Source of the DNA: Nannocystis sp.
GTDB taxonomy: Bacteria; Myxococcota_A; Polyangia; Nannocystales; Nannocystaceae
Assembly: GCF_016717175.1 (NCBI RefSeq)
Contig: NZ_JADKFZ010000003.1
Strand: one strand, 5' to 3'
DNA length: 37,303 nt
Shown here one piece after another: positions 1,395 to 37,303 of the stretch. Under the pieces are notes generated by a model, which saw only the letters and a list, made by a program, of their open reading frames with translations, did not search any database and was not told where the DNA came from. Made by a program: the position numbers and the translations under genes. Numbering within the stretch: position 1 is the first letter of the stretch; every line of letters begins with the position of its first letter.

Positions 1395-3308
1395 ATGTCT
1401 CACCGCCGCCTCCTCGCAATCCCTCTCGCGCTCGTGGCGTGTGATCCGGCGACCGGCGATCGGGACGGCGGGCTGGATGTCCCGGAGGACAGGTCGGATG
1501 TCCCGGGGGACATCCGGGCGCCGGGCGGGCTGGATGTCCCGGAGGACAGGTCGGATGTCCCGGAGGACATCCAGGACGCGGCCGAACTCGGGGCGCCGCG
1601 CGGGATGTCGCCGCTGGGTGGGCCGCGGGGGTGGACCACGCCGACGCCCGCGCCGCTGCCAGCGGTCAAGGCGCCGCTGCCGGCGGCGTATTGCAAGATC
1701 AACGTCAACGGCGTCGATCACGACACAGAGACGGACTACGTGCCGCACGTGGTCCAGTGCGAGAACGGGGGCGCCAACTTCGAGGCGCTCAAGGCCCAGG
1801 CGATCGCGGCCCGGTCGGTGGCGTACTACGCGATGGCGAACGACGGCAAGATCTGCGACGGGCAGGGCTGTCAGGTGTACTCGTGCAACGCCAACCCGAC
1901 GCAGGCGCAGCTCGACGCGGCCAAGGCGACGGCGGGGCAGTACCTGTCGTTCAACGGGTGGCTGACCTATGCCTTCTACGTCGCCGGCGACTCGACCACG
2001 GCGCCGCCGAGCTGCGTCGACACCGACAACGGCAACGCCTCGGCGACCGAGAAGTGGGTGACCTTCAATAATGGCAAGACGGGTTACGACGTCGACCAGA
2101 CGGGGCTCGGCTTCAAGTTCCCCGAGGACCTGAATGTGGCGGGTTACGGGCAGAACCGCGGCTGCATGTCGCAGTGGGGCGCTCGCTGCCTCGAGAACAA
2201 GAACGGCAAGAACAGCACGGACATCCTGCAGTTCTACTTCGGCGCGGACATCCAGATCTTGCAGGCGGAGGGGTCGTGTGTGGTCCCGCCGAACAAGCCG
2301 GCGAGCGGGTCGCTCGACGAGGTGAGCTGCACGCAGCTGCGCGGGTGGGCCTTCGACGGCGACAGCGGGGCCGCGGCGATCAACGCGTACGTCAGCTTCC
2401 ATGCGCCGCTCGGAGATCCGGCGGCGGTGTCGATCACGCTGCTGGCGGCGGAGCAGCGCGACGACCTGTGCGACATGCTCGGGAGCTGCACGCACGGCTT
2501 CTCGCACGGGCTGCCGCGCTCGCTGATGGACAACCAGCCGCACCCGGTGCACGCGTACGCGGTCGATCCGCAGGCCGATCCTGTCGAGGTTGGCGGTAGC
2601 CCGAAGGACCTGCTGTGCCCGCCGCCGGCGCTGCCGGAGGGGGTGCGGCGGCACATTGGCAGCCCGGAGGTGTTGGCCGACTGGCAGTTCGACACCTTCT
2701 GGCAGATGGCGAAGGTCGACGACGCGACGCTGAACGCGATCGCGGAGTGGCAGGCGATCCCGACCTCGCCGCTGCTGATGCGGGTCGAGGGCGACCCGGC
2801 GGTGTGGCTGTTCGACAACGGGTTTCGTCGGCTGATCCCGAGTCCGGAGGTGGCGGCGGCCTGGAAGATGGATCTCAACGCGGCGGCGCTGTGGACCGCG
2901 GAGGAGCTGATGATGGTGCCCGAGGGCACCCCGCTGCGACCGGAGCCGTTCCTGATCACGGGCGCGGGGCCGGCGGTGTACCTGATCGACGACGCGCAGT
3001 GTCCGGCGCAGGGCGACCCGAACGACCCGCTGTGTCCGCCACCCGACCCGAGTGGGGGTAGTGACGGCGGCGAGAGCAGCGGCGGGGCGGGCAGCTCGGG
3101 TGGCAATACCCCGACCGAGGGCTGGGTCGGGTCGGAGGGGGGCGTGGGTGCTTCGAGCGGGGCGGGCGAGGGCGGGCAGTTGGACAGCGGACCGGCGTTG
3201 CCGCCGGGGTACGGCGGCCAGAGCGGCTGTGTGGTCGATCCGGTCCAGCGGGGAGCGCCGGGTGTGCTCGTGCTCGCGGGGGTGTTGTTGCGGCGACGGC
3301 GACGCTAG
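1395..3308 (+). CDS. SpoIID/LytB-domain lipoprotein with N-terminal 19-aa tandem repeats and a MYXO-CTERM-like tail
   Basis: Start MSHRRLLAIPLALVACD has a lipobox. The motif EALKAQAIAARSVAYYAM..CDGQGCQVY resembles the SpoIID/LytB amidase-enhancer core (ALKAQAVAARTYA). The C-terminus GCVVDPVQRGAPGVLVLAGVLLRRRRR has the Cys + TM + Arg-run pattern typical of MYXO-CTERM sorting tails. Confidence 0.6.
   Translation: MSHRRLLAIPLALVACDPATGDRDGGLDVPEDRSDVPGDIRAPGGLDVPEDRSDVPEDIQDAAELGAPRGMSPLGGPRGWTTPTPAPLPAVKAPLPAAYCKINVNGVDHDTETDYVPHVVQCENGGANFEALKAQAIAARSVAYYAMANDGKICDGQGCQVYSCNANPTQAQLDAAKATAGQYLSFNGWLTYAFYVAGDSTTAPPSCVDTDNGNASATEKWVTFNNGKTGYDVDQTGLGFKFPEDLNVAGYGQNRGCMSQWGARCLENKNGKNSTDILQFYFGADIQILQAEGSCVVPPNKPASGSLDEVSCTQLRGWAFDGDSGAAAINAYVSFHAPLGDPAAVSITLLAAEQRDDLCDMLGSCTHGFSHGLPRSLMDNQPHPVHAYAVDPQADPVEVGGSPKDLLCPPPALPEGVRRHIGSPEVLADWQFDTFWQMAKVDDATLNAIAEWQAIPTSPLLMRVEGDPAVWLFDNGFRRLIPSPEVAAAWKMDLNAAALWTAEELMMVPEGTPLRPEPFLITGAGPAVYLIDDAQCPAQGDPNDPLCPPPDPSGGSDGGESSGGAGSSGGNTPTEGWVGSEGGVGASSGAGEGGQLDSGPALPPGYGGQSGCVVDPVQRGAPGVLVLAGVLLRRRRR
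1467..1580 (+). repeat. 57-bp in-frame tandem duplication encoding GGLDVPEDRSDVP(G/E)DI(R/Q)(A/D)(P/A)
   Basis: Two near-identical consecutive 19-codon units are visible in both the DNA and the translation. Each unit contains a ggatgtccc..gggacatcc inverted repeat. Confidence 0.8.
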
Positions 3309-3430
3309 CGATCGGGCGTGTTGATCAGCAGTGCTCGTGCTCGTGGGGGTGTTGTTGCGGCGACGACACTCGCGGTCAGGCGTGTAGGTCGGCGCTGCTC
3401 GTGCTCGCGGGGCGACGCTAGCGATCGGGC
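3264..3430. repeat. Triplicated, partially deleted copies of the SpoIID-gene 3' tail filling the convergent intergenic space; the palindromic GCTAGCGATCG motif supplies the TAG stop for both convergent genes
   Basis: The segment gtgctcgtgctcg(c/t)ggggg tgttgttgcggcgacg occurs three times (about 3268, 3330 and 3385). The 18-mer cgacgctagcgatcgggc occurs at the + gene stop (about 3298) and again at the - gene stop (about 3412). Confidence 0.7.
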
Positions 3431-7888: not shown

Positions 7889-8730
7889 GCCAGGTCGGAA
7901 GGGACATGTCGCGGGGGACAGGTCCGGGGGCGGCGCTGCTGCGCGCGGGGCGGGTGCTGGCGGCGATGTGGCGGCTGGGGTTGGCGGAGGCGGTGGCGTA
8001 CCGGGCGGCGATGCTGGTGTGGATCTTGACGACGACCTTCCCGCTGGTGTCGCTGGCGCTGTGGTACAGCCTGGCGGCGGACGGGCCGATCGGGGACTAC
8101 GGGCGGGCCGACTTCGTGGCGTACTTCGTGGCGGCGTTCCTGATCCGGCAGCTGACGGCGAGCTGGGTGGTGTGGGACCTGTCGGCGCAGATCGCCAGCG
8201 GGGACCTGAGCACGCTGCTGATGCGGCCGGTGCACCCGCTGCTGCACCACTTGATGCAGAACGTGGCGGCGTTGCCGGTGCGGATGGCGCTGGCGCTGCC
8301 GCTCGGGGTGCTGGTGCTGGTGCTGGCGGGCGGGATCTCGGTGGAGCCGGGGCTGCACCTGCTGCTGGTGCCGCTGGCGGTGATCCTGGCGTGGCTGCTG
8401 GGGCTGTGCGTGCAGACCTGCGTGGCCTGCCTGGCGTTCTGGGTCACCTCGTCGACGTCGCTGTTCGAGGTGTGGCTCGGGCTCTACATGGTGCTGTCGG
8501 GCTACGCGGTGCCGACCTCGCTGTTCCCGGCGGGGCTCGTCGCCGTGGTCCGCTACCTGCCGTTTCATGCGTCGCTGGGATTTCCGGTGGAGCTGACGAT
8601 CGGGCGGCTGTCGGGGCCGGAGATCGCGGCGGGCTTCGCCACGCAGGTGGTGTGGCTGGCGCTGTTCGGGGGGCTCGCGCGCTGGCTGTGGCGCCGCGGG
8701 CTGCGGGCCTACGGGGCGGTGGGAGCGTGA
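7885..8730 (+). CDS. ABC-2 family transporter permease (subunit 1)
   Basis: ATG overlaps the ATPase stop (ATGA), indicating translational coupling. About 6 TM helices and ABC-2 (PF06182-like) architecture; 281 aa. Confidence 0.7.
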
Positions 8731-12972: not shown

Positions 12973-13009
12973 GGCACCTGTCCGCGGGGACAGGTCAGGT
13001 CGTGACTCA
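12970..13009. repeat. Single-unit GGGACAG palindromic element (cctgtcc-gcgg-ggacagg + ggtcaggtcgtgactcagg) spanning exactly from the + gene TGA to the nqrM TGA
   Basis: ggcTGAggcacCTGTCCgcggGGACAGgtcaggtcgtgacTCAggcgg: a perfect 7-bp stem hairpin, with end modules shared with the arrays at 26.9 and 31.9 kb. Confidence 0.7.
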
Positions 13010-20330: not shown

Positions 20331-20465
20331 CTTGGGGCGTGCGGGTCATCACGGCGGTGGCGGGGCCAATGCGGCGGACCAACGCGGGCAAATGGGGCGG
20401 TGGCGGCCCGTGCAGGGGCCGATGCAGTGGGCCGATGCGGGCCCCTGCGGTGGGGCCATGCGGGT

Positions 20466-22475
20466 CTATGCGGGCCCCCGCGGCAAGTCGGCCGCGATCG
20501 GCAATCGGTCGTAGCGCATGTTGCGGCGGGCCGGTGCGAAGCCGGCCAGGCGGATGTGGGTCTCGACCTGGGCGCTGGTCATCATGAAGTGGGCGCCGGC
20601 GGTGGAGACCACGTTCTCCTCGATCATGATCGAGCCGAAGTCGTTGGCGCCGAAGCGGAGGGCGACCTCGCCGATCTCCGGGCCGAGCGTGGGCCACGAC
20701 ACTTGCAGGTTCGGGATGTTGTCGAGGTATAGCCGGGCAAGTGCCTGGATTCGCAGGTAACGCAGGGGGCTGGTGTCGTCGCGGAGTTTGAGCCGCGTGC
20801 CTTCGGCCTGGAACGGCCAGGTGATGAAGGCGGTGAAGCCGTGGGTGTCGTCTTGCAGGCGGCGGAGGCGGTCCATGTGGAGGAGCAGCTGTTCGGAGCT
20901 CTCCTGGAAGCCGAACACCATGGTCGCGGTGGTCTTCATGCCGAGGTCGTGGGCCTCGCGCATGACGGCGAGCCACTCGTCGGCGGTGTTCTTGAACGGG
21001 GAGATGCGGGTGCGGATCTCGTCGTCGAGGATCTCGGCGCCGCCGCCGGGGAGGGAGTCCATGCCGGCGGCGCGCAGGCGGACGAGGACCTCGCGGATCG
21101 GGAGGTCGGCGAGCTCGGCGATGTGGATGATCTCGGTGGGGGAGAGGGCGTGGAGGGCGAGCTTGAAGTTCTGCTTGGTCCAGCGGAACAGGTCCTCGTA
21201 GTAGGCGAGGTCGAGGGCGGGGTTGAGGCCGCCTTGCAGGAGGATCTGGACGCCGCCGAGGGACTCGGTCTCGCGGAACTTCTCGGCCAGGGTCTCGCGG
21301 CTCAGGACGTAGCCGCCGGCGGCGCCGGGCGGCGTGTAAAAATTGCAGAACTTGCAGCGAGTTACGCAGATGTTTGTGTAGTTGACGTTGCGGTCGATGA
21401 TGTAGGTGACGACGCCGTCGGGATGGAGCATCTGGCGGCGGTGGTCGGCGGCGGCGCCGAGCGCGTTGAGGTCGGCGTTCTCGTAGAGGAAGATCCCCTC
21501 GGCGAGATCGAGGCGGCCGCCGTTTGCGGCACGGGCGAGGAGCTCGTCGACCTGCATGGCCGGACGCGGCTGACGGGCGACGCGGAGGGCCTCCGATTCG
21601 CCGCCGCCGGCGAAGCGGACGTGGATGGTGTCGTCGTCGGCGAGGCCGGGGATCTGGACCAGGCCGGCCTCGCGGGCGCGGGTGAGGAACTCGACCAGGC
21701 CCTCGCGCTCCTTGGTGCTGAGGCTGTAGCGGATCGATCGCCGGAGGTAGTTGGCGTAGGCGTTCTCCGAGAGGATGGTCGGGTCGCCCCCCTGCGAGAG
21801 GGCTGCGAGGCGCGTCTGGCGGTAGGCGCGGGCGAGGTCCTCGGCGTGCTTGAGGCCGTAGGCGCGGGCCTGCTGCAGGGCGGCGACGTGGGCCGGGGTG
21901 AGCAGGCCGGGGCGGGCGGCCCAGAACGCGAACACGAAGGGGAGGCCGGTGGTTGCCTGCCAGAGGTTGCCGAGGTCGTGGACGTGTGGACCGGAGAGGC
22001 CGAGGGCGGCGTCGCCGATGATGAGGGCGGCGTCGCGGCCGTGGACGCGGGCGAGGCCCTCGCGGTGCGGGGCCGTGACGAACTCGGGGTGGACGCCGCG
22101 GGCGGCGAGCAGGAGCTGGACGAGCAGGGCGGAGCTGCGGGAGGCGGCGTCGAGGTGAACGCGGGCGATGTCGACGAGCGGGACCTCGGCGACGAGCACG
22201 ACGGAGAGGACGGGGCCGCGGCAGCCGATCCCGACCTCGGGGACGACCTCCCACTCGGGGTGGGCCGCGTAGGCGCCGACCGGGACGAGGGCCACGTCGC
22301 ACTCACCCTGCTCGAGCTGGCGGGCGCACTCGGAGGGCAGGGCGGTGTGGACCTCGAAGAGCGGCTGGCCGTCGGGGTCGAGGAAGCGGGGGGCGCCGGG
22401 GAGGTGCTCGCCGGTCAGCGGGTGCACGAGCGGCCAGGCGTTGAGGAAGGAGACGGCGCAGACTCGCAGCGGCAT
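20466..22475 (-). CDS. mqnA: In-frame fusion of MqnA (chorismate dehydratase, futalosine pathway) with a MqnE/MqnC-family radical-SAM enzyme (aminodeoxyfutalosine synthase or cyclic dehypoxanthinyl-futalosine synthase)
   Basis: The N-terminal half MPLRVCAVSFLNAWPL...GDAALGL...TGLPFVFAFWAAR matches MqnA (PF02621) motifs. The C-terminal half MQVDELLARAANGGRLDLAEGIFLYENADLNALGAAA...VTYIIDRNVNYTNICVTRCKFCNFY carries the radical-SAM CxxxCxxC and the MqnC/MqnE N-terminal pattern. No stop codon separates the halves. The start is chosen at the internal Met (22475); the ORF-track start at 22571 would add 32 aa. Confidence 0.75.
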   Translation of the reverse strand: MPLRVCAVSFLNAWPLVHPLTGEHLPGAPRFLDPDGQPLFEVHTALPSECARQLEQGECDVALVPVGAYAAHPEWEVVPEVGIGCRGPVLSVVLVAEVPLVDIARVHLDAASRSSALLVQLLLAARGVHPEFVTAPHREGLARVHGRDAALIIGDAALGLSGPHVHDLGNLWQATTGLPFVFAFWAARPGLLTPAHVAALQQARAYGLKHAEDLARAYRQTRLAALSQGGDPTILSENAYANYLRRSIRYSLSTKEREGLVEFLTRAREAGLVQIPGLADDDTIHVRFAGGGESEALRVARQPRPAMQVDELLARAANGGRLDLAEGIFLYENADLNALGAAADHRRQMLHPDGVVTYIIDRNVNYTNICVTRCKFCNFYTPPGAAGGYVLSRETLAEKFRETESLGGVQILLQGGLNPALDLAYYEDLFRWTKQNFKLALHALSPTEIIHIAELADLPIREVLVRLRAAGMDSLPGGGAEILDDEIRTRISPFKNTADEWLAVMREAHDLGMKTTATMVFGFQESSEQLLLHMDRLRRLQDDTHGFTAFITWPFQAEGTRLKLRDDTSPLRYLRIQALARLYLDNIPNLQVSWPTLGPEIGEVALRFGANDFGSIMIEENVVSTAGAHFMMTSAQVETHIRLAGFAPARRNMRYDRLPIAADLPRGPA

Positions 22476-25567: not shown

Positions 25568-26884
25568 ATGCTGCGCACGGCGGTCCGTAACAGCTTCGGG
25601 GCGGCGCTGCGGGTGTTCTTTCGCCGCATCGAGGTGGTGGGGGCGGAGCGGGTGCCGGCGACGGGGCCGGTGATCTTCGTGCTGAACCACCCGAACGCGC
25701 TGATCGACCCGGCCTTCTTGCTGTGCCTGGCGCCGCGTCCGGTGTCGTTCCTGGCCAAGGCGCCGCTGTTTCAGACGCCGGTGCTGGGGTGGATCGTGCG
25801 GGCCTTCGACTCGATCCCGATCCACCGCAAGCAGGACGAGGGCGGGGCGGTCGACAACCGCGACACCTTCAAGCTGGCGCGCGAGCTGCTGCAGCGGGGC
25901 CAGACGGTGGCGATCTTCCCGGAGGGGACCTCGCACAGCGAGCCGCACCTGAAGCCGCTGAAGACGGGGGCGGCCCGCATCGCCCTGGGGACCGGGCTCG
26001 CGGACCTGAAGATCGTGCCGACGGGGCTGTACTACGTCAACAAGGCGAAGTTTCGCAGCGACGCGCTGGTGGTCTACGGCGAGCCGTTTGGCGTTGAAGC
26101 AGCGGTGGGCGAGCCCGGGGCGGAGCCGGCGGCGGCGGCGGTGCAGGCGTTGACGGGGCGGATCGAGCGGGCGCTCGGCGAGGTGCTGCTGCAGGCGGAC
26201 CAGGCGGAGGCGCTGGCGCTGGTCGAGCGGGTCAGCCGGATCTTCGCGGCGACCAGCGAGGCGCCGTGGTCGCTGGCGGAGGGCTTCGAGCTGCGCCGGC
26301 GGGTCGCGGCCGGGTACTCGCGGCTAAGAGAGGCGGACCCGGTGGCGGTGGCGGCCGTGCGGGCCCGGGTGGAGCGCTACGAGCAGGATCTGGCGGCGCT
26401 GGGGATGTCGCCGGAGCACTACGGGCCGGCGGACTTCACGGTGATGGGGAGCGTCCGCTACGCGCTGCGCAGCGCGGGGAGCCTGCTGTTGCTGCTGCCG
26501 CTGGCGCTGCTCGGGACGGCGCTGCACCTGCCGATCTACCTCGTGATCGATGCGATCGCAGGGCGGATCGCCCGCGATGAGATGGACATGCCGGCGACGA
26601 TCAAGCTGCTGGCGGCGATGCTGCTGTACCCGCTGGCGTGGATCACGATCGGGGTGGTGGCCGGGGTGCTGTGGGGAGGGGCGTGGGGGGTGCTGGCGGG
26701 GCTGCTGGCGCCGATCAGCGCGGCGGCGGCGTTGTTGTTTCGCGAGCGCTTCGCCACGGTCGGGGCGGCGGCGCGGGGGCTGCTGCTGTTCGTGACGCGG
26801 CGCAACACGCTGGCGCGGCTGCACGGCGATCGCATGGCGATCCGGGCGGCGATCGTGGAGCTGGCGCGGCGGGTCGAGGGCTGA
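25568..26884 (+). CDS. PlsC-like lysophospholipid acyltransferase with a C-terminal multi-TM extension
   Basis: HxxxxD acyltransferase motif VLNHPNALID and the FPEGT motif, followed by a hydrophobic C-terminal third. Start ambiguity: ATG 25568 (MLRTAV..) or ATG 25544 (MPASIL..), the latter overlapping the divergent aminotransferase start. Confidence 0.7.
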   Translation: MLRTAVRNSFGAALRVFFRRIEVVGAERVPATGPVIFVLNHPNALIDPAFLLCLAPRPVSFLAKAPLFQTPVLGWIVRAFDSIPIHRKQDEGGAVDNRDTFKLARELLQRGQTVAIFPEGTSHSEPHLKPLKTGAARIALGTGLADLKIVPTGLYYVNKAKFRSDALVVYGEPFGVEAAVGEPGAEPAAAAVQALTGRIERALGEVLLQADQAEALALVERVSRIFAATSEAPWSLAEGFELRRRVAAGYSRLREADPVAVAAVRARVERYEQDLAALGMSPEHYGPADFTVMGSVRYALRSAGSLLLLLPLALLGTALHLPIYLVIDAIAGRIARDEMDMPATIKLLAAMLLYPLAWITIGVVAGVLWGGAWGVLAGLLAPISAAAALLFRERFATVGAAARGLLLFVTRRNTLARLHGDRMAIRAAIVELARRVEG

Positions 26885-26990
26885 GGCTGGCGGAAGGGAC
26901 AGGCTGGTCGAAGGGACAGGCTGGCCGAAGGGACAGACTGGCGGAAGGGACAGGCTGGCCGAAGGGACAGGCTGGCCGAAGGGTCAGGTC
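26882..26990. repeat. Six tandem copies of a 17-bp unit GGCTGGCCGAAGGGACA, bounded by the TGA of the + gene and (via ggTCAgg) the stop of the - strand reading frame
   Basis: Copies in order: ggctggcggaagggaca / ggctggtcgaagggaca / ggctggccgaagggaca / gactggcggaagggaca / ggctggccgaagggaca / ggctggccgaagggtca, then ggtcgcgggtgggg. Confidence 0.85.
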
Positions 26991-27071
26991 GCGGGTGGGG
27001 CCGGGGCGGCGCCGGGCGGGCTCGTGGGTCGATCCGCGGGCTCGCCAGCGGGCGCGGCGGGCAAGGGGAGC

Positions 27072-28367
27072 TCAGCGTCGGCGATCGTGAGGGCGGACCC
27101 CTGGGCGGCCTTCTGGTGGGCCTCCTCGGCGGCGAGGCGATGCTTGGGGTTTGCGATCGTGCCGACGACGTCGCCGCCGCAGCGGGGGCAGACCTTGGTC
27201 GTTGGGGGTGAGCGGGCCGCCGCACTTGGGCTCGGAGCAGCGGCGGTCGCGGAACAGGCGGCCGAGGCCGAGGCCGGCGAGGCCGAGGCCGGCGGCGATG
27301 ACGGCGATGTTGCTCATGCCGGGGCCCTGGTCGGGGGACATGCGGGACAGCACGCCGCCGAGCATGAGGGCGCCCATGAAGAGGACACGGCCGAGGCGGG
27401 GGGCCAGGCTGCGGTCGACCATGAAGACGGGCTTGCCGGTGTTCATGCCGGCGACGCCGCGGTCCTCGTCGCGGCGGGTCTCGGGCTCGGCCTCGGGCTC
27501 GCGCGCGAGCGGGGCGGTGAGGGCGGCGAGGGAGGGCGGGGCGGGCCAGTGGTCCTTGCCGGGGACGCCGAGCTGGACGCCGATCGGTGGGTCCATGCGC
27601 TCGATGGCGGCGAAGCTGTGGCGGAAGAAGGCGGCCTGGTTGGCCTGGAGGGCGCGGGCGAGGCGTTGGCGCTCGGCCCGGCCCTCGCCGCGGACGTGGA
27701 CCTGCACGGCGAGCAGGAAGCAGATGGCCTGGGGCGGCAGGCTGCCGAGGCGCAGGGGGACGCGGCGGTTCTGGACGGCGCCGGTGCTGCTGCGGCTGGT
27801 GAAGCGGAGGGCGGCGTCGGCGGTGAGCAGGCCGAAGCCGAGGTAGACGGCGCTGACGTCGATGCGGGGGTCGTAGGCGTCGCTGACGGGGAGGTTGTGG
27901 GCGAGGCGATGGGCGTGGCTGACGACGCGGGCGCAGGCGGCGACGAGGCTGGCGGGGTCGGCCATGGCGCTGGCCTCGACGCCGACCTCGAGGCCAGCTC
28001 CCGGACCGGGGCCACCCTTGAAGCTGGCGAGCCACACGACCAGCTCCTGGGCGCCTCGCGGGGTGACCGGCTTGCCGATGACCTCGCCGCGGCGGGCGGG
28101 CTCGGCGTCGTAGATGCGGACGCCGACGCGGAGGTCGTCGGGGAGGCCGGCGTAGGCGCAGAGCCGGAGGAGGAGGCGGCGGACGCTGCTGTCGCCGCCG
28201 CCCCAGGGGTCGGGGAAGAAGCGCGGGCTCGGCTCGACGAGCAGGCTGGTGGCGAGCGGGCCGGGGCCGAGCGCGACGACCAGCGCCCGCAGCTGCTCCT
28301 GCAACCAGCGGCGATCGTCCTGCGGCGGGAGCATGAGCCCATCGTCGCCCTGTTCCGGCCCGGCCAT
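27072..28367 (-). CDS. hypothetical membrane-associated protein with a C-terminal split C4 zinc ribbon; an apparent -1 frameshift in a C5 homopolymer (about 27204-27208) truncates it, and the corrected ORF would end at about 26984
   Basis: N-terminus MAGPEQGDDGLMLPP.., ~300-aa soluble region, hydrophobic segment MSNIAVIAAGLGLAGLGLG, then CSEPKC. The shifted frame continues PPTTKVCPRCGGDVVGTIANPKHRLAAEEAHQKAAQGSALTIADAE...APAPPAT*, completing C-x4-C-x10-C-x2-C. Confidence 0.45.
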   Translation of the reverse strand: MAGPEQGDDGLMLPPQDDRRWLQEQLRALVVALGPGPLATSLLVEPSPRFFPDPWGGGDSSVRRLLLRLCAYAGLPDDLRVGVRIYDAEPARRGEVIGKPVTPRGAQELVVWLASFKGGPGPGAGLEVGVEASAMADPASLVAACARVVSHAHRLAHNLPVSDAYDPRIDVSAVYLGFGLLTADAALRFTSRSSTGAVQNRRVPLRLGSLPPQAICFLLAVQVHVRGEGRAERQRLARALQANQAAFFRHSFAAIERMDPPIGVQLGVPGKDHWPAPPSLAALTAPLAREPEAEPETRRDEDRGVAGMNTGKPVFMVDRSLAPRLGRVLFMGALMLGGVLSRMSPDQGPGMSNIAVIAAGLGLAGLGLGRLFRDRRCSEPKCGGPLTPNDQGLPPLRRRRRRHDRKPQASPRRRGGPPEGRPGVRPHDRRR

Positions 28368-28466
28368 GGCGCTGCTCTCTACCACGAGTGGCGCCGGGTC
28401 TGTCGCCTGTGAGCTGGCGCGGGGGCTGACCCGAAACCGGGGGGCGAGGGTAACATCCGCGGCCGC

Positions 28467-31400
28467 ATGCGCCGCACCGCCCTGTCTCGCCCGTCCGTCG
28501 CGCTGGTCTCGCTGGGTCTCGGGCTGAGTCTCGTGACCTGCGCCCCGAAGGCGCCGAGCAGCCCGCCAGCGCTCGCCCACACGCCCGGCGCGCCCGCCAC
28601 CAAGCCGACACCTGTCCCGAAGGACAGCACGGGGAAGGCCGAGCCGGAGGTCCCGAAGTGGGACGTGAACGACCCGCCGGGCGAGGAGCAGGAGGTCAAG
28701 CTGGACGTCCGCGAGGGCACGTGGATGGCGCTCGACGTGAGCCCGGATGGGCGCGAGCTCGTGTTCGACCTGCTCGGCGACCTGTATCTCCTGCCGATCG
28801 CGGGCGGCGAGGCGCGGGCGCTGACGCAGGGGATGGCCTGGGACATGCAGCCGCGCTTCAGCCCGGACGGGCAGTGGATCGCGTTCACCAGCGACCGCGG
28901 CGGCGGCGACAACGTGTGGGTGCTCGCGCGGCCGACGGCTGCGGGGGCGGTGGTGGCGGAGCCGAAGCCAGAGCCCAAGCAAGTCACGAAGGAGGACTTC
29001 CGGCTGGTGAACAGCCCGGTGTGGTCGCCCGACGGGAACTTCATCGCGGTGCGCAAGCACTTCACCAAGCACCGCAGCCTCGGCACCGGCGAGATCTGGC
29101 TGTACCACGTGGCGGGCGGCAAGGGCGTGCCGATGACGGAGAAGGTCAACGACCAGAAGGATGTCGGCGAGCCGGCGTTCTCGCCGGACGGGGCCCATCT
29201 TTACTTCAGCCTCGACAACACGCCGGGGGCGACCTTCGAGTACAACAAGGACCCGTACGGCGAGATCTACGCGATCAAGCGGCTGGAGCGGGCCAGCGGG
29301 CGCATCGAGACGCTGGCCGGCGGGCCCGGGGGCGCGGCCCGGCCGACGCCGTCGCCGGACGGCAAGTCGCTGGCGTTCATCCGTCGCGTCGGCGGCACCG
29401 CGGGCGCGCCGGACAAGACGACGCTGATGGTCCGCGAGCTGCAGTCGGGGGCGGAGCGCCCGGTGTTCGCGGGGCTCGACCGCGACATGCAGGAGACCTG
29501 GGCGATCCATGGCGTGTACCCGGCGATCGCGTGGACGCCGGACAGCCGCGAGCTGGTGTTCTGGGCCGCGGGCAAGCTGTGGCGCACGCGGGCCGACGGC
29601 AGCCAGGCGGCGCCGACCGAGATCCCGTTCCACGTGAGCGGGACCCGCAAGGTGGCGCCGGCGCTGCGCTTCGCGGTCGAGGTGGCGCCGCGCGAGGTCG
29701 ACGTGAAGGCGCTGCGCGGGGTGACGGTGAGCCCGGACGGCGGCCGCGTGGTCTACCAGGCGCTCGGCCACCTGTACGTACGGACATTGCCCGAAGGACA
29801 GGCGAAGCGGCTGACCAAGCAGAGCGACCACTTCGAGCAGGACCCGGCCTTCTCGCGCGACGGCAAGCAGATCGTGTTCACGACCTGGGACGACCAGGCG
29901 CTCGGCAGCGTGCGCACGATCGCGGTCGGCGGCGGCAAGGAGCGGGTGATCAGCGATCGGCCGGGGCACTACGTGGCGCCGCAGTGGAGCCCGGACGGCA
30001 AGCAGGTGGTCGTGCAGCGGATCGGCGGGGGCTGGACGCGCTCGCCGACCTGGTCGCAGGAGCAGGGCATCTACGCGATCGAGGTGAAGACGGCGAAGGC
30101 GACGCTGGTCCGCCGCGACGGGGCCGAGCCGCACTTCGGGGCGGCGAGCGATCGGCTGTTCTTCAGCAGCTACGACGACGACAAGGTGGAGCTGCGCAGC
30201 GTGGAGCTGGACGGCAGCGACGAGCGCACGCACGTGAAGACGGAGGGGGCGAGCCGCCTGCGGGTGTCACCGGACGGGCGCTGGCTGGGCTGGACGGAGG
30301 GCTTCCAGGCGCTGATCGCCCCGCTGCCGCCGACCGGGCGGACCATCGAGCTGGGGCCGAAGGCGGAGGGGCTGCCGGTCGCCAAGGTGAGCCGCGACGC
30401 GGGCGAGCACGTGCACTGGTCGGGCGACAGCCAGCGCCTGCACTGGTCGCTGGGGCCCGAGCTGTACACGCGCGAGCTGAAGGACGCGTTCGCGTTCGTG
30501 GCCGGGGCCCCGGCGGAGCTGCCCAAGCCGGCGGAGACGGGGCTGGCGATCGGCTTCAAGGCGCCCGCGGCGGTGCCGACGGGGACGCGGGCGATCGTCG
30601 GGGCGCGGGTGATCACGATGCGCGGCGACGAGGTGATCGAGGACGCGACGATCGTGATCAACGGCGATCGCATCAGCGCGATCGGGCCGTCGGCGCAGCT
30701 GCAGGCGCCGGCCGGGGCGGAGGTCGTGCGGGCCGAGGGCAAGACGATCATCCCGGGGCTGATCGACGTGCACGCGCACGGCAGCCAGGGCGAGGACGGC
30801 ATCACGCCGGAGCAGAACTGGCTGCACTACGCGATGCTGGCGTACGGGGTGACGACGGTGCACGACCCGAGCAACGACACGGCGTCGATCTTCGCGGCGA
30901 GCGAGATGCAGCGGGTCGGGGCGGTGGTCGGGCCGCGCATCTTCTCGACCGGGACGATCCTGTACGGGGCGCAGGCGCCGTTCAAGGCGGAGATCGCCAG
31001 CCTCGAGGACGCGCGCGGGCACCTGCGCCGGCTCAAGGCGATCGGGGCCTTCTCGGTCAAGAGCTACAACCAGCCGCGGCGAGAGCAGCGGCAGCAGGTG
31101 ATCGCGGCGGCGCGCGAGCTCGGGATGATGGTGGTGCCGGAGGGCGGCGCGCTGTTTCACCACAACATGACGATGGTCGCCGACGGGCACACGGGCATCG
31201 AGCACGCGCTGCCGGTGGCCAGCGCCTACGCGGACGTGATGCAGTACTGGGGGGCGACCAAGGTCGGCTACACGCCGACGCTCGGGGTGGCCTACGGGGG
31301 CTTAGGCGGCGAGAACTACTGGTACGCGCACACGCAGGTGTGGGAGGACAGCCGGCTGCGGCGCTTCGTGCCGGCCAACGCGTTCGAGCCGCGCGCCCGT

Positions 31401-31874
31401 CGGCGGACCCTGGCGGCCGACAACGACTGGAACCACGTGCGGGTGGCGAGCCTGGCCAAGCAGCTGCTCGACGCGGGCGTGAAGGTGCAGCTGGGGGCGC
31501 ACGGGCAGCGCGAGGGGCTGGCGGTGCACTGGGAGCTGTGGAGCTTCGCCCAGGGCGGGATGACGCCGCTCGAGGTGCTGCGCACGGGCACCCTGGCGGG
31601 GGCGCAGTACCTCGGCCTCGACCGCGACCTCGGCTCGCTCGAGCCGGGCAAGCTGGCGGACCTCTTGATCCTCGACCGCGACCCGCGGGTCGACATCCGC
31701 GCGACCCGGCAGGTGGCGATGGTGATGATCGGCGGGCAGCTGTTCGACGCGGGGACCATGGCGGAGATCGGCGGGGCGAAGCGGGTGCCGCAGCCGTTCT
31801 ACTTCAGCGAGGGCGGGCGCCTGAGCGGCAAGCCGCCCGCGCACGCGCAGTGCGTCGGCCACGCGGCGCACTGA
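28467..31874 (+). CDS. Lipoprotein fusing an N-terminal TolB-like (PD40/WD40-like) beta-propeller to a C-terminal metal-dependent amidohydrolase domain
   Basis: Lipobox LSLVTCAP. Repeated ..SPDG(K/Q)xIAF/VF.. PD40 motifs (FSPDGQWIAFTSDRGG, WSPDGNFIAV, SPDGKSLAFI, WSPDGKQVVV). The amidohydrolase metal-binding signature is IIPGLIDVHAHG..., with later GHTGIEHA and HGQREG motifs. Confidence 0.8.
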   Translation: MRRTALSRPSVALVSLGLGLSLVTCAPKAPSSPPALAHTPGAPATKPTPVPKDSTGKAEPEVPKWDVNDPPGEEQEVKLDVREGTWMALDVSPDGRELVFDLLGDLYLLPIAGGEARALTQGMAWDMQPRFSPDGQWIAFTSDRGGGDNVWVLARPTAAGAVVAEPKPEPKQVTKEDFRLVNSPVWSPDGNFIAVRKHFTKHRSLGTGEIWLYHVAGGKGVPMTEKVNDQKDVGEPAFSPDGAHLYFSLDNTPGATFEYNKDPYGEIYAIKRLERASGRIETLAGGPGGAARPTPSPDGKSLAFIRRVGGTAGAPDKTTLMVRELQSGAERPVFAGLDRDMQETWAIHGVYPAIAWTPDSRELVFWAAGKLWRTRADGSQAAPTEIPFHVSGTRKVAPALRFAVEVAPREVDVKALRGVTVSPDGGRVVYQALGHLYVRTLPEGQAKRLTKQSDHFEQDPAFSRDGKQIVFTTWDDQALGSVRTIAVGGGKERVISDRPGHYVAPQWSPDGKQVVVQRIGGGWTRSPTWSQEQGIYAIEVKTAKATLVRRDGAEPHFGAASDRLFFSSYDDDKVELRSVELDGSDERTHVKTEGASRLRVSPDGRWLGWTEGFQALIAPLPPTGRTIELGPKAEGLPVAKVSRDAGEHVHWSGDSQRLHWSLGPELYTRELKDAFAFVAGAPAELPKPAETGLAIGFKAPAAVPTGTRAIVGARVITMRGDEVIEDATIVINGDRISAIGPSAQLQAPAGAEVVRAEGKTIIPGLIDVHAHGSQGEDGITPEQNWLHYAMLAYGVTTVHDPSNDTASIFAASEMQRVGAVVGPRIFSTGTILYGAQAPFKAEIASLEDARGHLRRLKAIGAFSVKSYNQPRREQRQQVIAAARELGMMVVPEGGALFHHNMTMVADGHTGIEHALPVASAYADVMQYWGATKVGYTPTLGVAYGGLGGENYWYAHTQVWEDSRLRRFVPANAFEPRARRRTLAADNDWNHVRVASLAKQLLDAGVKVQLGAHGQREGLAVHWELWSFAQGGMTPLEVLRTGTLAGAQYLGLDRDLGSLEPGKLADLLILDRDPRVDIRATRQVAMVMIGGQLFDAGTMAEIGGAKRVPQPFYFSEGGRLSGKPPAHAQCVGHAAH

Positions 31875-32054
31875 GGCTGTCTGCGGGGACAGGTGGGCTG
31901 TCCGCGGGGACAGGTGGTGCTGTCCCTCGGGACAGCTCTGATCGGCTGGCCGCGGGGACAGGTGGTGCTGTCCATCGGGACAGGTCAGGTCGCGGGTGGG
32001 CGGCTCAGGTGGGTTGTCTGAAGGGACAGGTGAGCTGTCCGCCGGGACAGCTCA
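31872..32054. repeat. Array of ~8 imperfect hairpin units (CTGTCC-N3-4-GGGACAG, ~21-22 bp period) plus two GGTCAGGTCGCGGG(T/C)GGGCGG end modules, spanning exactly from the amidohydrolase TGA to the murJ TGA
   Basis: Units in order: ctgtctgcggggacag, gctgtccgcggggacag, gctgtccctcgggacag, ggccgcggggacag, gctgtccatcgggacag, ttgtctgaagggacag, gctgtccgccgggacag. The murJ last codons ..PPAT-TGA are the reverse complement of ctcaggtcgcgggcgggcgg. Confidence 0.85.
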
Positions 32055-33662
32055 GGTCGCGGGCGGGCGGCGGCGGATCCGTCGCCACAGGCTGCGTGGG
32101 AGGCGGGCGAGGCTGTCGATGCCGGGGAAGCGGGCGAGCTGCAGCACGCTGACGTAGACGAGGAAGCCGAGGCCGACGATGAGCAGGAGGGCGAGGGCGA
32201 GGGCGAGGGTGGCGAGCGGGCCGCGCAGGGCGAGCTGCGTGAGGCCGAGGGCGGCGCCGGTCCAGGCGGCGTAGAGGACTCCGCCCATGACGGCGTTGGC
32301 GAGCAGCAGCCAGGCGAGCTCGCGGACGCGGCCGGGGCGGGCGAGCGGGCCGACCTTGCGGGCGAAGAACAGGCGCAGGAGGCCGACGTTGACGAGGGCG
32401 CCGAGGCTGGTGCCGAGCGCGAGGCCGGGGGCGCCGAGCTGGCGGTAGAAGTAGGCGTTGAAGGCGATGGTGGCCGCGATCGCGGCGAGCGAGGCGAGCA
32501 GGGGCAGGCGCGGGCGGTCGGTCGCGTAGAAGGCGGGGGCGACGATCTTGACCATGCTGTAGGGGACCAGGCCGAGGGCGTAGGCGCGGAGGATCGCGGC
32601 GACGGCGAGGGTGTCGGCGGCGGTGAAGCGGCCGCCCTCGTAGATCAGGGAGACGATCGGCTCGGCGAGGACGACCAGGCCGACGGTGCTGGCGGCGGTC
32701 AGCAGCCAGAGGGCGGACAGGCTCTCACCTGTCTTTTGGACCAGGCCGCTGCGGTCGCCGCGGGCGGCCTCCTCGGACAGCTGGGTGGTGGCGATGGTGG
32801 CGAGGGCGACGCCGAACATGCCGATCGGGAGGTAGAAGATGCGAAACGCGTACTCGAGCTGGGCGACGGGGCCGTCGCCGAGGCTGGCGGCGAAGCGGGT
32901 GTTGACGAAGATGTTGACCTGGATCGCGGCGACGCCGACGACGGCGGGGAGCATCATGCGGGCGATCCTCCGCACGCCGGGGTGGCGCCAGGCGCCGCGC
33001 AGGGCCAGGCGCGGGCGGTAGCCGAGGCGCCACAGCGGGGGCAGGAGGTAGAAGCTCTGGACCACGCCGGCGGCGAGGGTGCCGATGCTCCACGCGGTCA
33101 CGGCCCACATGCCGCCGGCGCCGGCGATCCACAGGCCAGCGCCGCAAAGCACGCTGATCACGTTGAACAGCGCGGGCGCGTAGGCGGGGGCGAGGAAGTG
33201 GCGCTGCGCGTTGAGCATGCCGGTCCACACGGCGCCGACGCTGACGAGGGCGAGCAGCGGCATCATGATGCGGGTCAGCGCGGCGGCGTCGGCGAGCTTG
33301 GCGGGGCTCCAGCCGGCGGTCATGAGGCGGACCAGGTCGTCGGCGAACACGACGCCCAGCAGGGTGAGGCCGCCGGTGACGAGCAGCAGGACCGCGAGGG
33401 TGAGGTTGGCGAGCTGGTCAGCGCGGGCCCGGTCCTCCTGCACGAGGGCGGCGGTGAAGGTCGGGACGAAGGCGCTCGAGAGGGCGCCCTCGGCCAGCAG
33501 ATCGCGCAGGAGGTTCGGGATCCGGAAGGCGACGGAGTAGGCGTCGGCGAGCGCCCCGGCGCCGACGAGGCGGGAGAACAGGGCCTCGCGCAGGAGGCCG
33601 AGCACGCGTGACACGGCGACGGCCAGGCTGAGCGACCCGGATCTCTGCAAGCTGCCGGACAA
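32052..33662 (-). CDS. murJ: Lipid II flippase MurJ (MviN)
   Basis: N-terminal signature AVAVSRVLGLLREALFSRLVGAGALADAYSVAFRIPNLLRDLLAEGALSSAFVPTF; 14 predicted TM helices; 536 aa. Confidence 0.9.
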   Translation of the reverse strand: MSGSLQRSGSLSLAVAVSRVLGLLREALFSRLVGAGALADAYSVAFRIPNLLRDLLAEGALSSAFVPTFTAALVQEDRARADQLANLTLAVLLLVTGGLTLLGVVFADDLVRLMTAGWSPAKLADAAALTRIMMPLLALVSVGAVWTGMLNAQRHFLAPAYAPALFNVISVLCGAGLWIAGAGGMWAVTAWSIGTLAAGVVQSFYLLPPLWRLGYRPRLALRGAWRHPGVRRIARMMLPAVVGVAAIQVNIFVNTRFAASLGDGPVAQLEYAFRIFYLPIGMFGVALATIATTQLSEEAARGDRSGLVQKTGESLSALWLLTAASTVGLVVLAEPIVSLIYEGGRFTAADTLAVAAILRAYALGLVPYSMVKIVAPAFYATDRPRLPLLASLAAIAATIAFNAYFYRQLGAPGLALGTSLGALVNVGLLRLFFARKVGPLARPGRVRELAWLLLANAVMGGVLYAAWTGAALGLTQLALRGPLATLALALALLLIVGLGFLVYVSVLQLARFPGIDSLARLPRSLWRRIRRRPPAT

Positions 33663-35535: not shown

Positions 35536-37303
35536 TGCGTCGGTCAAAACCGACAGAGAGGAGAGAATGAGAGAGTCTTACAGTGAAGGTCTAGCGAGCC
35601 ACACTGGCCCCGAGTCATGCGGAGGCGATCGCAAGGTCGTCGGCGAAGCGTTGACAGGGGCCACGCGGGCTGGGACATGGAGCTCCGAAATCGGAAATTC
35701 GGGTGGCGGACGCCGTGGACGCAAGCGGAACGCAACACCTGACGCGCCGTTAGAGCGAGGAACGTCAGGCCCCGCGGAGTCGAAGACCCCAAGCACGCGT
35801 GGAACCTCTTTGTACGGGAACCGAGAGATCCTGTGGTGGCCCACGAGATGGTCGTGGGCGGAGATCAGGAAGCCGAGGAGGCGAAGCTGATCATGGTGGG
35901 CCACAGGAAGTCGGACAGGGTCGTAGTACCGGAGAAGCGGCCGAACAACGCCTCAGAGGCGGCGGAGGCCGTGGAGGGAAGGATCCTGACCAAGGGGAAC
36001 ACGGACGAGCAAGCCGCGTCCCGGACACAGCGCCGGATTGAAGACGCGTCAAGCAAGCTCGACCGTGTACGAGAAGCGGCCAGAAGGGACAAGGAGCAGA
36101 AGTTCACAGCGCTGCTGCACCACGTGGACGAGACGGCGCTCTTGCGGGCGTTCCGAACGATGAACCGCAACGCCACAGCTGGCGTCGATGGCGTGACGTG
36201 GGCGCAGTACGAGGATGGGGTGGAAGAACGGTTGCAGGAGTTGTGCTCGCGGATCCACCGCGGAGCATACCGACCGCAGCCGTCGCGGCGGACGTACATC
36301 CCGAAGGCGGATGGGACGCAGCGAGCGCTGGGCATCGCGGCGCTCGAGGACAAGATCGTGCAGAAGGCCGTGGCTGCGGTGCTGAACGCGATCTATGAGG
36401 AGGATTTCCTCGGGTTCTCGTACGGGTTTCGGCCCGGACGATCACAGCATGACGCACTGGATGCCCTCACCGTGGCGATCCAGACGAAGAAGGTGAACTA
36501 CATCCTGGACGCGGACATCCGTGGGTACTTCGATACCATCGACCACGCGACGCTCCTTCAGCACGTCCAGCATCGAGTGCATGACCCGCGGGTGCTCAGG
36601 CTCATCCAGCGGTGGCTGAGGGCCGGGGTCATGGACGAGGGGCGATGGAAGGCGAGTGAGGCAGGGACGCCTCAGGGCGCGACGATCTCACCGCTGCTGG
36701 CGAATATCTACCTCCACCACGTACTCGATCAGTGGGTGTGTGCGTGGCGGAAGATGCAAGCTCGCGGCGAGGTGATCATCGTGCGCTACGCCGACGATTT
36801 CATCGTCGGCTTTCAGTACGAGCAGGACGCGAAGGCGTTCCAGGAGGCTCTGCAAGCGCGCCTGCGCGAGCACCTGCTGGAGCTGCACCCCGACAAGACG
36901 CGGCTGATCGAGTTTGGGCGCTACGCGCTCGAGCGACGAGCAGAGCGTGGCGAGGGGAAGCCACAGACCTTCAACTTCCTCGGCTTCACGCACATCTGTG
37001 CGCCAGGCGAGAAGGGGTTTTGGGTCAAGCGCATCCCGATGAAGGAGAGAGTCCGTGCGAAGCTGCGGAAGCTGAAAGAGGCTCTCCGGCGCGTCATGCA
37101 CCGACCCGTCTCCGTCGTGGGCGCGTGGTTGAAGAAGGTTCTGCAGGGGTACTTCGCCTACTATTCCGTGCCCGGAGCCCAGGGGACGCTCTCGAAGATG
37201 CGTCACCAACTGGGCTACCTCTGGGTCAGGGTGCTGCGTCGACGCGACCAAAACCGGACCCTGAACTGGGAACGGATGCGGCGGATCGTCAAGGCATGGC
37301 TCC
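35536..37303 (+). mobile_element. Group II intron, 3'-partial; the 5' boundary is uncertain (a GTGCG candidate lies at about 35535, and the true boundary may be up to ~250 nt further upstream)
   Basis: Intron-encoded RT/maturase ORF from 35893 to the window end, with a non-coding structured leader upstream. GTGCG at ~35535 fits the GUGYG 5' consensus. A 22-bp direct repeat GCTTG(A/C)GTGGGGCAACGCGGGG lies at ~35268 and ~35321 between dtd and the intron. Confidence 0.5.
35893..37303 (+). CDS. Group II intron-encoded reverse transcriptase/maturase (3'-partial; continues beyond the window)
   Basis: Manual translation gives MVGHRKSDRVVVPEKRPNN..ALLRAFRTMNRNATAGVDGVTW..YRPQPSRRTYIPKADGTQRALGIAALEDKIVQKAV (RT0-2)..FRPGRSQHDAL (RT3)..GTPQGATISPLLANIYLH (RT4)..RYADDFIV (RT5 YADD)..LGFTH (RT7)..domain X WLKKVLQGYFAYYSVPG. 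A ggagg RBS lies 8 nt upstream. It is absent from the ORF track because there is no stop in the window. Confidence 0.85.
   Translation, partial: MVGHRKSDRVVVPEKRPNNASEAAEAVEGRILTKGNTDEQAASRTQRRIEDASSKLDRVREAARRDKEQKFTALLHHVDETALLRAFRTMNRNATAGVDGVTWAQYEDGVEERLQELCSRIHRGAYRPQPSRRTYIPKADGTQRALGIAALEDKIVQKAVAAVLNAIYEEDFLGFSYGFRPGRSQHDALDALTVAIQTKKVNYILDADIRGYFDTIDHATLLQHVQHRVHDPRVLRLIQRWLRAGVMDEGRWKASEAGTPQGATISPLLANIYLHHVLDQWVCAWRKMQARGEVIIVRYADDFIVGFQYEQDAKAFQEALQARLREHLLELHPDKTRLIEFGRYALERRAERGEGKPQTFNFLGFTHICAPGEKGFWVKRIPMKERVRAKLRKLKEALRRVMHRPVSVVGAWLKKVLQGYFAYYSVPGAQGTLSKMRHQLGYLWVRVLRRRDQNRTLNWERMRRIVKAWL

Follow-up and report, generated by a model that had tools for sequence, protein, structure and literature searches.

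When a spacer between two convergent genes is found to consist of tandem palindromes, with a stop codon at either edge, the question arises whether these palindromes represent a mobile element that has replaced the ends of both genes or a repeat of a known kind that has accumulated behind them. The locus raising this question lies in a stretch of 37,303 nt from a Nannocystis species, referred to in its entirety as the window, which has a guanine plus cytosine (GC) content of 70.7%; coordinates are those of the window unless a compared locus (L-numbers) is named, and P-numbers denote database proteins. Here a gene for a TolB/Tricorn-like protein with an amidohydrolase part (the amidohydrolase gene) and murJ, which codes for the lipid II flippase, converge on a spacer of 177 bases that is filled entirely by an array of short palindromic units. 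The locus is also present in a Nannocystis sp. metagenome-assembled genome (MAG; contig NZ_JADJNN010000042.1, 98.75% identity to the window) and in GCA_964267895.1 (contig CAXWJW010000043.1, 99.2% identity), and when genome contigs were scanned with a 22-base pattern consisting of the unit plus GGTCAGGTCG, the sole match was this same locus in the Nannocystis sp. MAG. As described below, the unit is non-random, is dispersed over multiple loci, forms head-to-tail arrays, changes in copy number and is positioned at gene 3' ends, where it abuts stop codons. Based on these results, the array is probably a head-to-tail array of a lineage-specific family, present in a Nannocystis clade, which resembles the repetitive extragenic palindromes (REPs).

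The unit and its arrays

In an earlier sequence-only reading of this locus, the spacer was described as being filled by tandem palindromes, and the sequence indeed reads as described: by count it contains seven CTGTCC-N4-GGACAG hairpin units and one block (31985-32010) which is not a hairpin (Table 1), and Tandem Repeats Finder (TRF) reports an array at 31875-32050 with a period of 21-22 and 7.9 copies. If the unit were a product of chance, then similar numbers of it should be seen in shuffled sequence; however, the window contains 13 copies of CTGTCCNNNNGGACAG (with up to one mismatch) where 0.12 would be expected, and none of 100 shuffles reached 13. The spacer also folds much more stably than its shuffles, with z-scores of -5.5 and -6.8 for the two strands, and the folding of single units is likewise significant. 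As RNA, single units are predicted to fold at -8 to -11 kcal/mol and the extended unit 7, the final TCA of which is the murJ stop codon, at -19.2 and -17.8 kcal/mol, while single units folded as DNA give -5 to -6.5.

The anatomy of the unit was measured on 53 sequences (the window and high-GC metagenome loci; 370 kb in all). The loop is 4 nt long in all of the 157 exact units, no CTGTCC/GGACAG pair is seen at any other spacing between 0 and 12, and the shorter TGTC/GACA pairs number 257 at N6 versus 8 or fewer otherwise. The sequence of the loop is free (40 variants) and the linkers between units are 1-11 nt long. The consensus of 68 arrays, which were oriented by the composition of their linkers, reads gGG-CTGTCC-nnn-G-GGACAG-GT, i.e. 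a core palindrome of 16 bp with a stem of 6 bp and asymmetric flanks. Due to this asymmetry the unit is polar and its arrays are head-to-tail, all units of an array having one orientation, with the G-rich linkers and GGGACAGGT on one strand. The GGGACAG arm is near-invariant and variants recur in the other arm, viz. CTGGCC, which has an uncompensated G.A mismatch (36 distinct units), ATGTCC (22) and CTGTCT (19). The CTGGCC sub-type, of which the array at 26.9 kb is formed, folds poorly (-3.6 kcal/mol, z = -0.2 on one strand). Mismatches compatible with wobble pairing number 30 on the G-rich strand versus 11 on the other, and this G.U asymmetry, which is confounded by mutation bias and by the method of orienting the arrays, is suggestive. 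Linker orientation agrees with the direction of transcription in 8 of 8 co-directional metagenome arrays; at the 1.5 kb and 7.9 kb sites of the window the orientation of the unit disagrees with it, and a loop-based marker gives 6 versus 2.

The absolute fixity of the half-site spacing, with the loop sequence left free, can be explained in two ways. It will result from the copying of units from a common ancestor, but it will also be seen if the units serve a dimeric sequence-specific protein (e.g. one acting on the nucleoid, on topology or in regulation) as binding sites in double-stranded DNA, in which case the arrays would be multi-site loading platforms and the hairpins incidental. The second explanation is in keeping with the observations that the conservation of one arm with its flank (G-GGACAG-GT) far exceeds that of the other arm and that the CTGGCC sub-type hardly folds, and an operator-like CTGT-N8-ACAG palindrome pair is found upstream of a split NtrC-type regulator in unrelated soil bacteria (see below). 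However, it does not accord with the location of the arrays downstream of genes rather than in promoter regions, nor with rows of up to 17 units whose unit-to-unit spacing of 1-11 nt shows no helical phasing, and no candidate protein is known. Binding of this kind is thus unlikely to be what the arrays are for.

The one-sided conservation of the unit also bears on whether GGGACAG is a dispersed, oriented recognition word (a DNA-uptake sequence (DUS), Chi or a word like the FtsK-orienting polar sequences (KOPS), GGGACAGG) that merely occurs as inverted pairs at gene ends. The asymmetry of the conserved arm, the frequent sharing of one orientation by the arrays of a contig, and the strand skew of GGGACAG in the window (16 on the + strand, two on the - strand) are as such a word would have them. 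Nevertheless, the word is not enriched where it should be, as outside units and arrays the 37 kb contain only 2-3 free copies where chance would give about 8.5, and GGGACAG was rejected on this ground as a DUS, Chi or KOPS-like free word; tandem arrays of up to 17 copies are likewise atypical for words of this kind. We regard this explanation as extremely improbable.

Copy number and stop codons among relatives

If arrays of the unit grow and shrink by tandem duplication and deletion, then the murJ spacers of related organisms should differ in their number of units, and such differences are seen. There are 5 units in L135 (94% nucleotide identity to the window), 2 in L008 (86% MurJ identity), at least 2 in L007 (86%), where the contig ends in the array, and 1 in L006 (87%), where a different 34-nt repeat follows; L012 (75%) has no units, and L011 (N. 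punicea, CP114040.1; 67%) has a different, AT-richer hairpin array (RTGTC-N6-GACAY). Overall, the murJ spacers of relatives at 86-96% identity hold 1, at least 2, 2, 5 or 7 units. The contigs L006, L007 and L136 break inside arrays. The suggestion of the sequence-only reading that this is an expanding palindromic family of the REP type, or of the type of bacterial interspersed mosaic elements (BIMEs), is thus borne out by copy numbers that vary among relatives and by arrays located at gene 3' ends. Two of these spacers hold repeats of their own. The 34-nt tandem repeat in L006 (11640-11768; GCATGGGCTTCGTTGCGCCGCGCGGGCGGG..) is perfect and follows the murJ-proximal unit, the contig ending inside it. 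In L011 (11625-11860) about 240 nt downstream of murJ are occupied by the other hairpin family (GTGTCTCTCGAGACAT, ATGTCTTAAACGACAT and others), which keeps the TGTC-N6-GACA geometry, and related lineages therefore appear to carry sister families.

Copy-number change also explains the 'end modules' of the sequence-only reading, according to which two copies of one sequence mark the ends of the element. The 12-mer TCAGGTCGCGGG does occur at 31985 and 32052, although the second module starts GCTCAGG and not GGTCAGG; the window has exactly three copies of this 12-mer, the third being at 26984. However, the internal module should not be interpreted as a terminus, since it is part of a block of 67 nt, repeated in tandem, which takes in the 3' end of murJ. 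This block, comprising the last murJ codons, the stop and two units, has two copies in the window and a single copy in L135, and in view of this difference the internal module is a paralogue of the murJ 3' end. The phase of the 67-nt repeat is arbitrary; the real murJ terminus lies in its distal copy. Further, none of the other fetched loci with arrays was found to have TCAGGTCGCGGG next to an array, and this 12-mer is therefore a local feature rather than a part of the repeat family.

Beyond this locus, a metagenome scan for 1.5 units gave at least 120 loci, and among the matches listed about 50 contigs of 70-78% GC, which were grouped by GC and arrays, carry true tandem arrays, often several per contig. 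The longest arrays on these contigs have up to 17 units. Many array contigs come from a wastewater metagenome series that also holds L137, a 96% relative of the window organism. Within the arrays of L030 and of L027 (77% GC) there are identical units, and loops and linkers vary from array to array. One array, that of L117 (10282-10513), has ten units whose period of 24 nt is divisible by three, and the flanks to either side look coding, on one and the same strand; it may be translated as a protein repeat. This census leaves out about 60 matches from soil (GC 56-69%; about half of those listed). In soil contigs (e.g. L053, 6200-6260) two palindromes, CTGTMYCTTGGGACAG and CTGTCCTTYGGGACAG, recur as a conserved pair some 32 bp from each other; on one side of the pair is a conserved gene end (..ELVRMAGQLG.. 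before the stop) and on the other a response-regulator receiver gene that is followed by a sigma-54 activator gene. This pair looks like an operator or enhancer and is unrelated to the arrays.

With regard to gene ends, genes around the metagenome arrays were called by a heuristic based on the phase of GC at third codon positions (GC3). Where both flanks of an array could be called, the flanking genes are convergent in 9 cases, co-directional in 10 and divergent in 2, and one of the 2 divergent arrays is at a gene end on inspection by eye. When inward-pointing stops at most 60 nt from an array edge were counted under stricter criteria for open reading frames (ORFs), 24 of the 36 were within 9 nt of the array and 10 of the 36 at exactly 1 nt. 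The stops 1 nt away mostly read TGA-G before CTGTCC or C-TCA after GGACAG, some of them forming the extended palindrome TGAG-CTGTCC...GGACAG-CTCA. Arrays also fill stop-to-start spacers within operons (L024, L076).

The central claim of the sequence-only reading was that the element had donated the stop codons of both convergent neighbours, together with the C-terminus of MurJ (PPAT followed by the stop). If this were so, then orthologues without an array should end differently. The amidohydrolase C-terminus (..AHA(Q/R)C.GH..H, then TGA) does not shift its position between L135, L008, L138 and the array-free L012, the residue before the stop being a conserved His in L135, L008 and L012 and an Asn at the aligned position in L138; the stop of this gene was hence not donated. 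MurJ orthologues share a conserved ..LWRR(I/L)RRR, after which there is a variable tail of 0-10 residues. In the window the last codons are ccg-ccc-gcg-acc-TGA, with the stop at 32052-32054, but RRR is commonly followed by a P(P)A tail in the orthologues, and L135 has an identical RRRPPAT-stop. The tail as a whole does not derive from the element; as judged from these alignments, at most the last codon and the stop of murJ are linked to the array, and 'PPA' is ancestral.

A different result is obtained for the second array, at 26.9 kb, which lies between the stops of an acyltransferase-domain gene (26882-26884) and a zinc-ribbon gene (26984-26986). The last unit contains the zinc-ribbon stop in one of its arms, which reads CTGACC on the - strand. 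In the window and in L135, L138 and L139 this TGA is inside the left arm of the first unit of the gene's own strand (CTGACC-N4-GGNCAG), CTGACC being one T-to-A change from CTGTCC, whereas in the array-free L012 the gene ends ..SVPEQ-stop in unrelated sequence. For this gene the stop appears, in effect, to be supplied by an array unit, and stop-codon capture thus holds here, though not for the amidohydrolase gene and for the most part not for murJ; likewise, comparison with the array-free relative finds the amidohydrolase end unchanged and the zinc-ribbon end different. The PPAT-stop which had been noted to recur at 26.9 kb is seen after repair of a frameshift near 27190, but not in the unrepaired frame. 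This frameshift divides the zinc-ribbon gene (- strand, 26984-28400), with CxxxxC in one frame and CPRC in the other; after conceptual repair the protein has 460 aa and is 100% identical to the database protein P0121, so that the frameshift is an assembly error or a strain-level one.

It is in the light of these gene ends that a mobile element targeting and overwriting gene 3' ends, with termini supplying the stops and the PPAT tail to both neighbours, has to be assessed. That the zinc-ribbon TGA is within a unit arm in all four array-bearing relatives while the array-free C-terminus differs is in keeping with such an element, and so are the ten stops exactly 1 nt from a unit (some as extended palindromes), the variation of the murJ tail past the conserved RRR, and the occurrence of CC(R)CCCGCGACCTGA in two unrelated genes. 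However, as the amidohydrolase stop is at its ancestral position, the P(P)A tails are common property of MurJ, the internal module is accounted for by the tandem block and is absent beside arrays elsewhere, and neither target-site duplications nor terminal inverted repeats beyond the unit are seen, we attach a low probability to this explanation.

Other sites in the window

In addition to the murJ spacer, the unit is found at five further places in the 37 kb, making six sites overall (Table 1). The single unit that the sequence-only reading had placed near 12.97 kb is present, but the stop of the adjoining gene (13007-13009) is outside the GGTCAGGTCG piece; this gene, of 57 aa on the - strand with its end at 13007, is downstream of the nqr operon's ApbE gene. 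The intragenic unit in the amidohydrolase gene has a unit at the same codon position in L135 (5742) and L012 (6464), which may reflect a REP that inserted in frame long ago or chance; L012 carries it though its murJ spacer has no array.

Some other repeats of the window are of a different nature. A 64-nt tandem repeat at 3265-3412 (2.3 copies, 83% matches), unrelated in sequence to the CTGTCC units, fills a second convergent spacer between genes ending at 3308 and 3418, and the spacer that lies upstream of the end of the nqr operon contains an imperfect 23-nt repeat, GGGCCCATGCGGTGGGCCCATGC, at 20411-20473. A strong Rfam match to domains D1-D4-6 of a group II catalytic intron is seen at 35572-35789 (+), about 2 kb from murJ (172 bits, E = 2e-50).

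Table 1. Repeat units, arrays and adjoining genes in the window
Feature	Position	Strand	Remarks
TolB/Tricorn-like plus amidohydrolase gene, 1135 aa	28467-31874	+	
Native TGA stop of this gene, reads cacTGA	31872-31874	+	C-terminus conserved in array-free L012
Unit 1, CTGTCTGCGGGGACAG	31877-31892		T.G wobble on + strand
Unit 2, CTGTCCGCGGGGACAG	31898-31913		
Unit 3, CTGTCCCTCGGGACAG	31920-31935		
Unit 4, CTGGCCGCGGGGACAG	31946-31961		CTGGCC sub-type, G.A mismatch
Unit 5, CTGTCCATCGGGACAG	31968-31983		
Non-coding paralogue of murJ 3' end (..SRPPAT-stop)	31985-32010	-	First 'end module' of the sequence-only reading
Unit 6, TTGTCTGAAGGGACAG	32014-32029		Two T.G wobbles on + strand
Unit 7, extended 10-bp-stem palindrome TGAGCTGTCC-GCCG-GGACAGCTCA	32031-32054		Core from 32035; 100% complementary
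Higher-order tandem repeat, two copies of 67 nt (unit - unit - murJ-end module)	31938-32071		53/67 identical
murJ (lipid II flippase)	32052-33662	-	Conserved core end ..LWRRIRRR, tail PPAT
Second array, six 17-nt units, CTGGCC-GAAG-GGACAG sub-type	26884-26988		TRF 90% matches
Single unit CTGTCCGCGGGGACAG	12978-12993		34-nt spacer, nucleoside-hydrolase-like gene (+) / 57-aa gene (-)
Array of four ATGTCC-CGGR-GGACAG/T units (variant arms)	1475-1569		Upstream of a + gene
Degenerate unit ATGTCGCGGGGGACAG	7907-7922		Junction of two co-directional ABC-transporter genes
Intragenic perfect unit CTGTCCCGAAGGACAG	28612-28627		N-terminal linker of amidohydrolase, encodes PVPKDS

Possible function and comparison with known systems

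If the array belongs to a REP-like family, as we consider probable, then its units would have spread over many intergenic sites. Locally, they pile up by tandem duplication and deletion, and the moving blocks can take in the 3' end of a neighbouring gene, as with the 67 nt here. Spacers downstream of genes appear to be almost the only places where units are tolerated, and as the units often occupy such a spacer completely, the stops end up 0-9 nt from a unit or inside one. The array would presumably be transcribed as the 3' untranslated region of both convergent mRNAs, where each unit is predicted to fold into a GC-rich RNA hairpin (about -8 to -19 kcal/mol) that could serve as a 3'-end barrier or as a terminator independent of a U-tract, as described for REPs. 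Because of its position close to the stop codon, a hairpin starting 1-2 nt past the stop may also affect translation termination. New loci would be seeded either by a REP-associated tyrosine transposase (RAYT) or by recombination only.

Several results weigh against this interpretation. Neither a GTAG nor a CGTC tag was found in the position matrix of the 68 arrays; the arrays are head-to-tail, with no inverted pairs such as those of REPINs (REP doublets forming hairpins); and a crude HUH-motif regular expression, run over the fetched loci (about 0.6 Mb), found nothing RAYT-like, a weak negative. There is no T-run on either strand of the spacer, where a scan for sigma-70 promoters and terminators was also empty, and any termination is therefore not canonical. 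The array context counts given above are a trend which is not significant alone (chi-square p about 0.1). Lastly, the CTGGCC sub-type folds poorly while the GGGACAG arm is invariant, which is left unexplained by a pure hairpin function, and the invariant N4 loop (157/157) is tighter than structure alone would require.

The fixed loop, the one-sided conservation of the arms and the poorly folding CTGGCC sub-type keep alive sequence-specific recognition by a DNA- or RNA-binding factor or a transposase. In its furthest-reaching form, the units would be specific recognition sites rather than generic hairpins, read by a dedicated factor such as a domesticated transposase, an RNA-binding factor or a factor for termination. 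The arrays would then be a system by which myxobacteria control 3' ends: the mRNA ends of both convergent genes would be set by it and, as the hairpins start 1 nt after the stop codons, possibly also the efficiency with which their translation terminates. This proposal draws on the G-GGACAG-GT arm and the 4-nt loop being invariant while an uncompensated mismatch is tolerated in the other arm, and we consider it a long shot.

Regardless of their function, these arrays break assemblies in Nannocystis and related genomes and blur gene 3' ends and C-terminal tails, and the variation of their copy number among close relatives makes them possible strain markers. They also provide a test case for the evolution of REPs that lack a GTAG/CGTC tag and which, if they also lack a RAYT, would have spread by tandem amplification alone. 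If hairpins starting 1 nt after stops affect transcription or translation termination, then the arrays would be a widespread determinant of expression in bacteria that are searched for natural products.

A number of known systems were considered and found not to fit. The units of an array are in one orientation, with no inverted pairs as in a REPIN, and the hairpins are accompanied by no T-run on either strand, such as would follow the hairpin of a canonical intrinsic terminator. The 24-48 bp repeats and unique spacers of similar length that are expected of a CRISPR array are not seen; with units of 16 bp and linkers that are 1-11 nt long and repetitive, the sequence-only reading was right to set CRISPR aside. 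For a miniature inverted-repeat transposable element (MITE), the sole inverted repeat is the unit itself (16-24 bp) and no direct duplications flank the arrays. Integron attC and dif-like sites do not fit in their anatomy. The CTGT-N8-ACAG geometry does fit a LexA box, but the location at 3' ends and the form of an array do not, and the known myxobacterial LexA box differs from the unit. In Rfam there was no match to any array at the gathering threshold, the only match in the window being the group II intron.

In high-GC bacteria such as Streptomyces and Mycobacterium, hairpin and bidirectional terminators that lack a U-tract occur between convergent genes. Like these, the Nannocystis arrays consist of GC-rich stem-loops without a T-run that are usable from both strands. 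However, the hairpins of such terminators are locus-specific, whereas the Nannocystis stem recurs at many loci and in tandem, which argues for common descent or recognition rather than independent selection for structure. In E. coli, REP hairpins located no more than about 15 nt from a stop codon reportedly stall terminating ribosomes (Liang, Rudd and Deutscher, 2015); the Nannocystis hairpin also starts 1-9 nt after the stop, and this analogy may serve as a lead only.

The closest similarity is to the REP/BIME clusters, for which the SMAG repeats of Stenotrophomonas and those of Pseudomonas and Thauera (GTAG) were used as the comparison (PMC3733652). The Nannocystis family differs from these in that it has neither GTAG nor CGTC, the end tetranucleotides defining two REP super-families (PMC3733652), its polarity residing in the G...GGT context around one arm; in being strictly head-to-tail, with no REPIN-type inverted dimers seen; in its very short 16-bp core with an invariant 4-nt loop and unequal conservation of the arms; and in its myxobacterial host, with no associated RAYT identified by the HUH-motif expression in the fetched loci. 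No description of REPs in Nannocystis or Myxococcota was found in the literature searched, which is not proof of their absence. In other respects the two agree. Both are short imperfect palindromes with lineage-specific sequence and occasional intragenic copies, intergenic copies apparently being many in Nannocystis as well, and both occur as singletons and as tandem clusters reiterated with flanking DNA, as is known of REP clusters, some of whose members are intragenic (PMC3733652). REPs are located predominantly between unidirectional and convergent ORFs, those between convergent ORFs being less than 20 bp from both ORF ends, and GTAG REPs, with their termini, frequently give the flanking ORFs their stop codon (PMC3733652); the Nannocystis units similarly favour convergent and co-directional spacers, are found closer than 20 bp to ORF 3' ends, and can supply a stop with their ends. 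The view that the element belongs to no obviously described class was thus overstated, as tandemly reiterated REPs that supply stops near convergent ORF ends have been published (PMC3733652). Based on its structure and position, the family works like a REP/BIME cluster and is placed here as an untagged REP-like family; it is an undescribed local family of a known class, the repetitive extragenic palindromes, and not a new kind of element.

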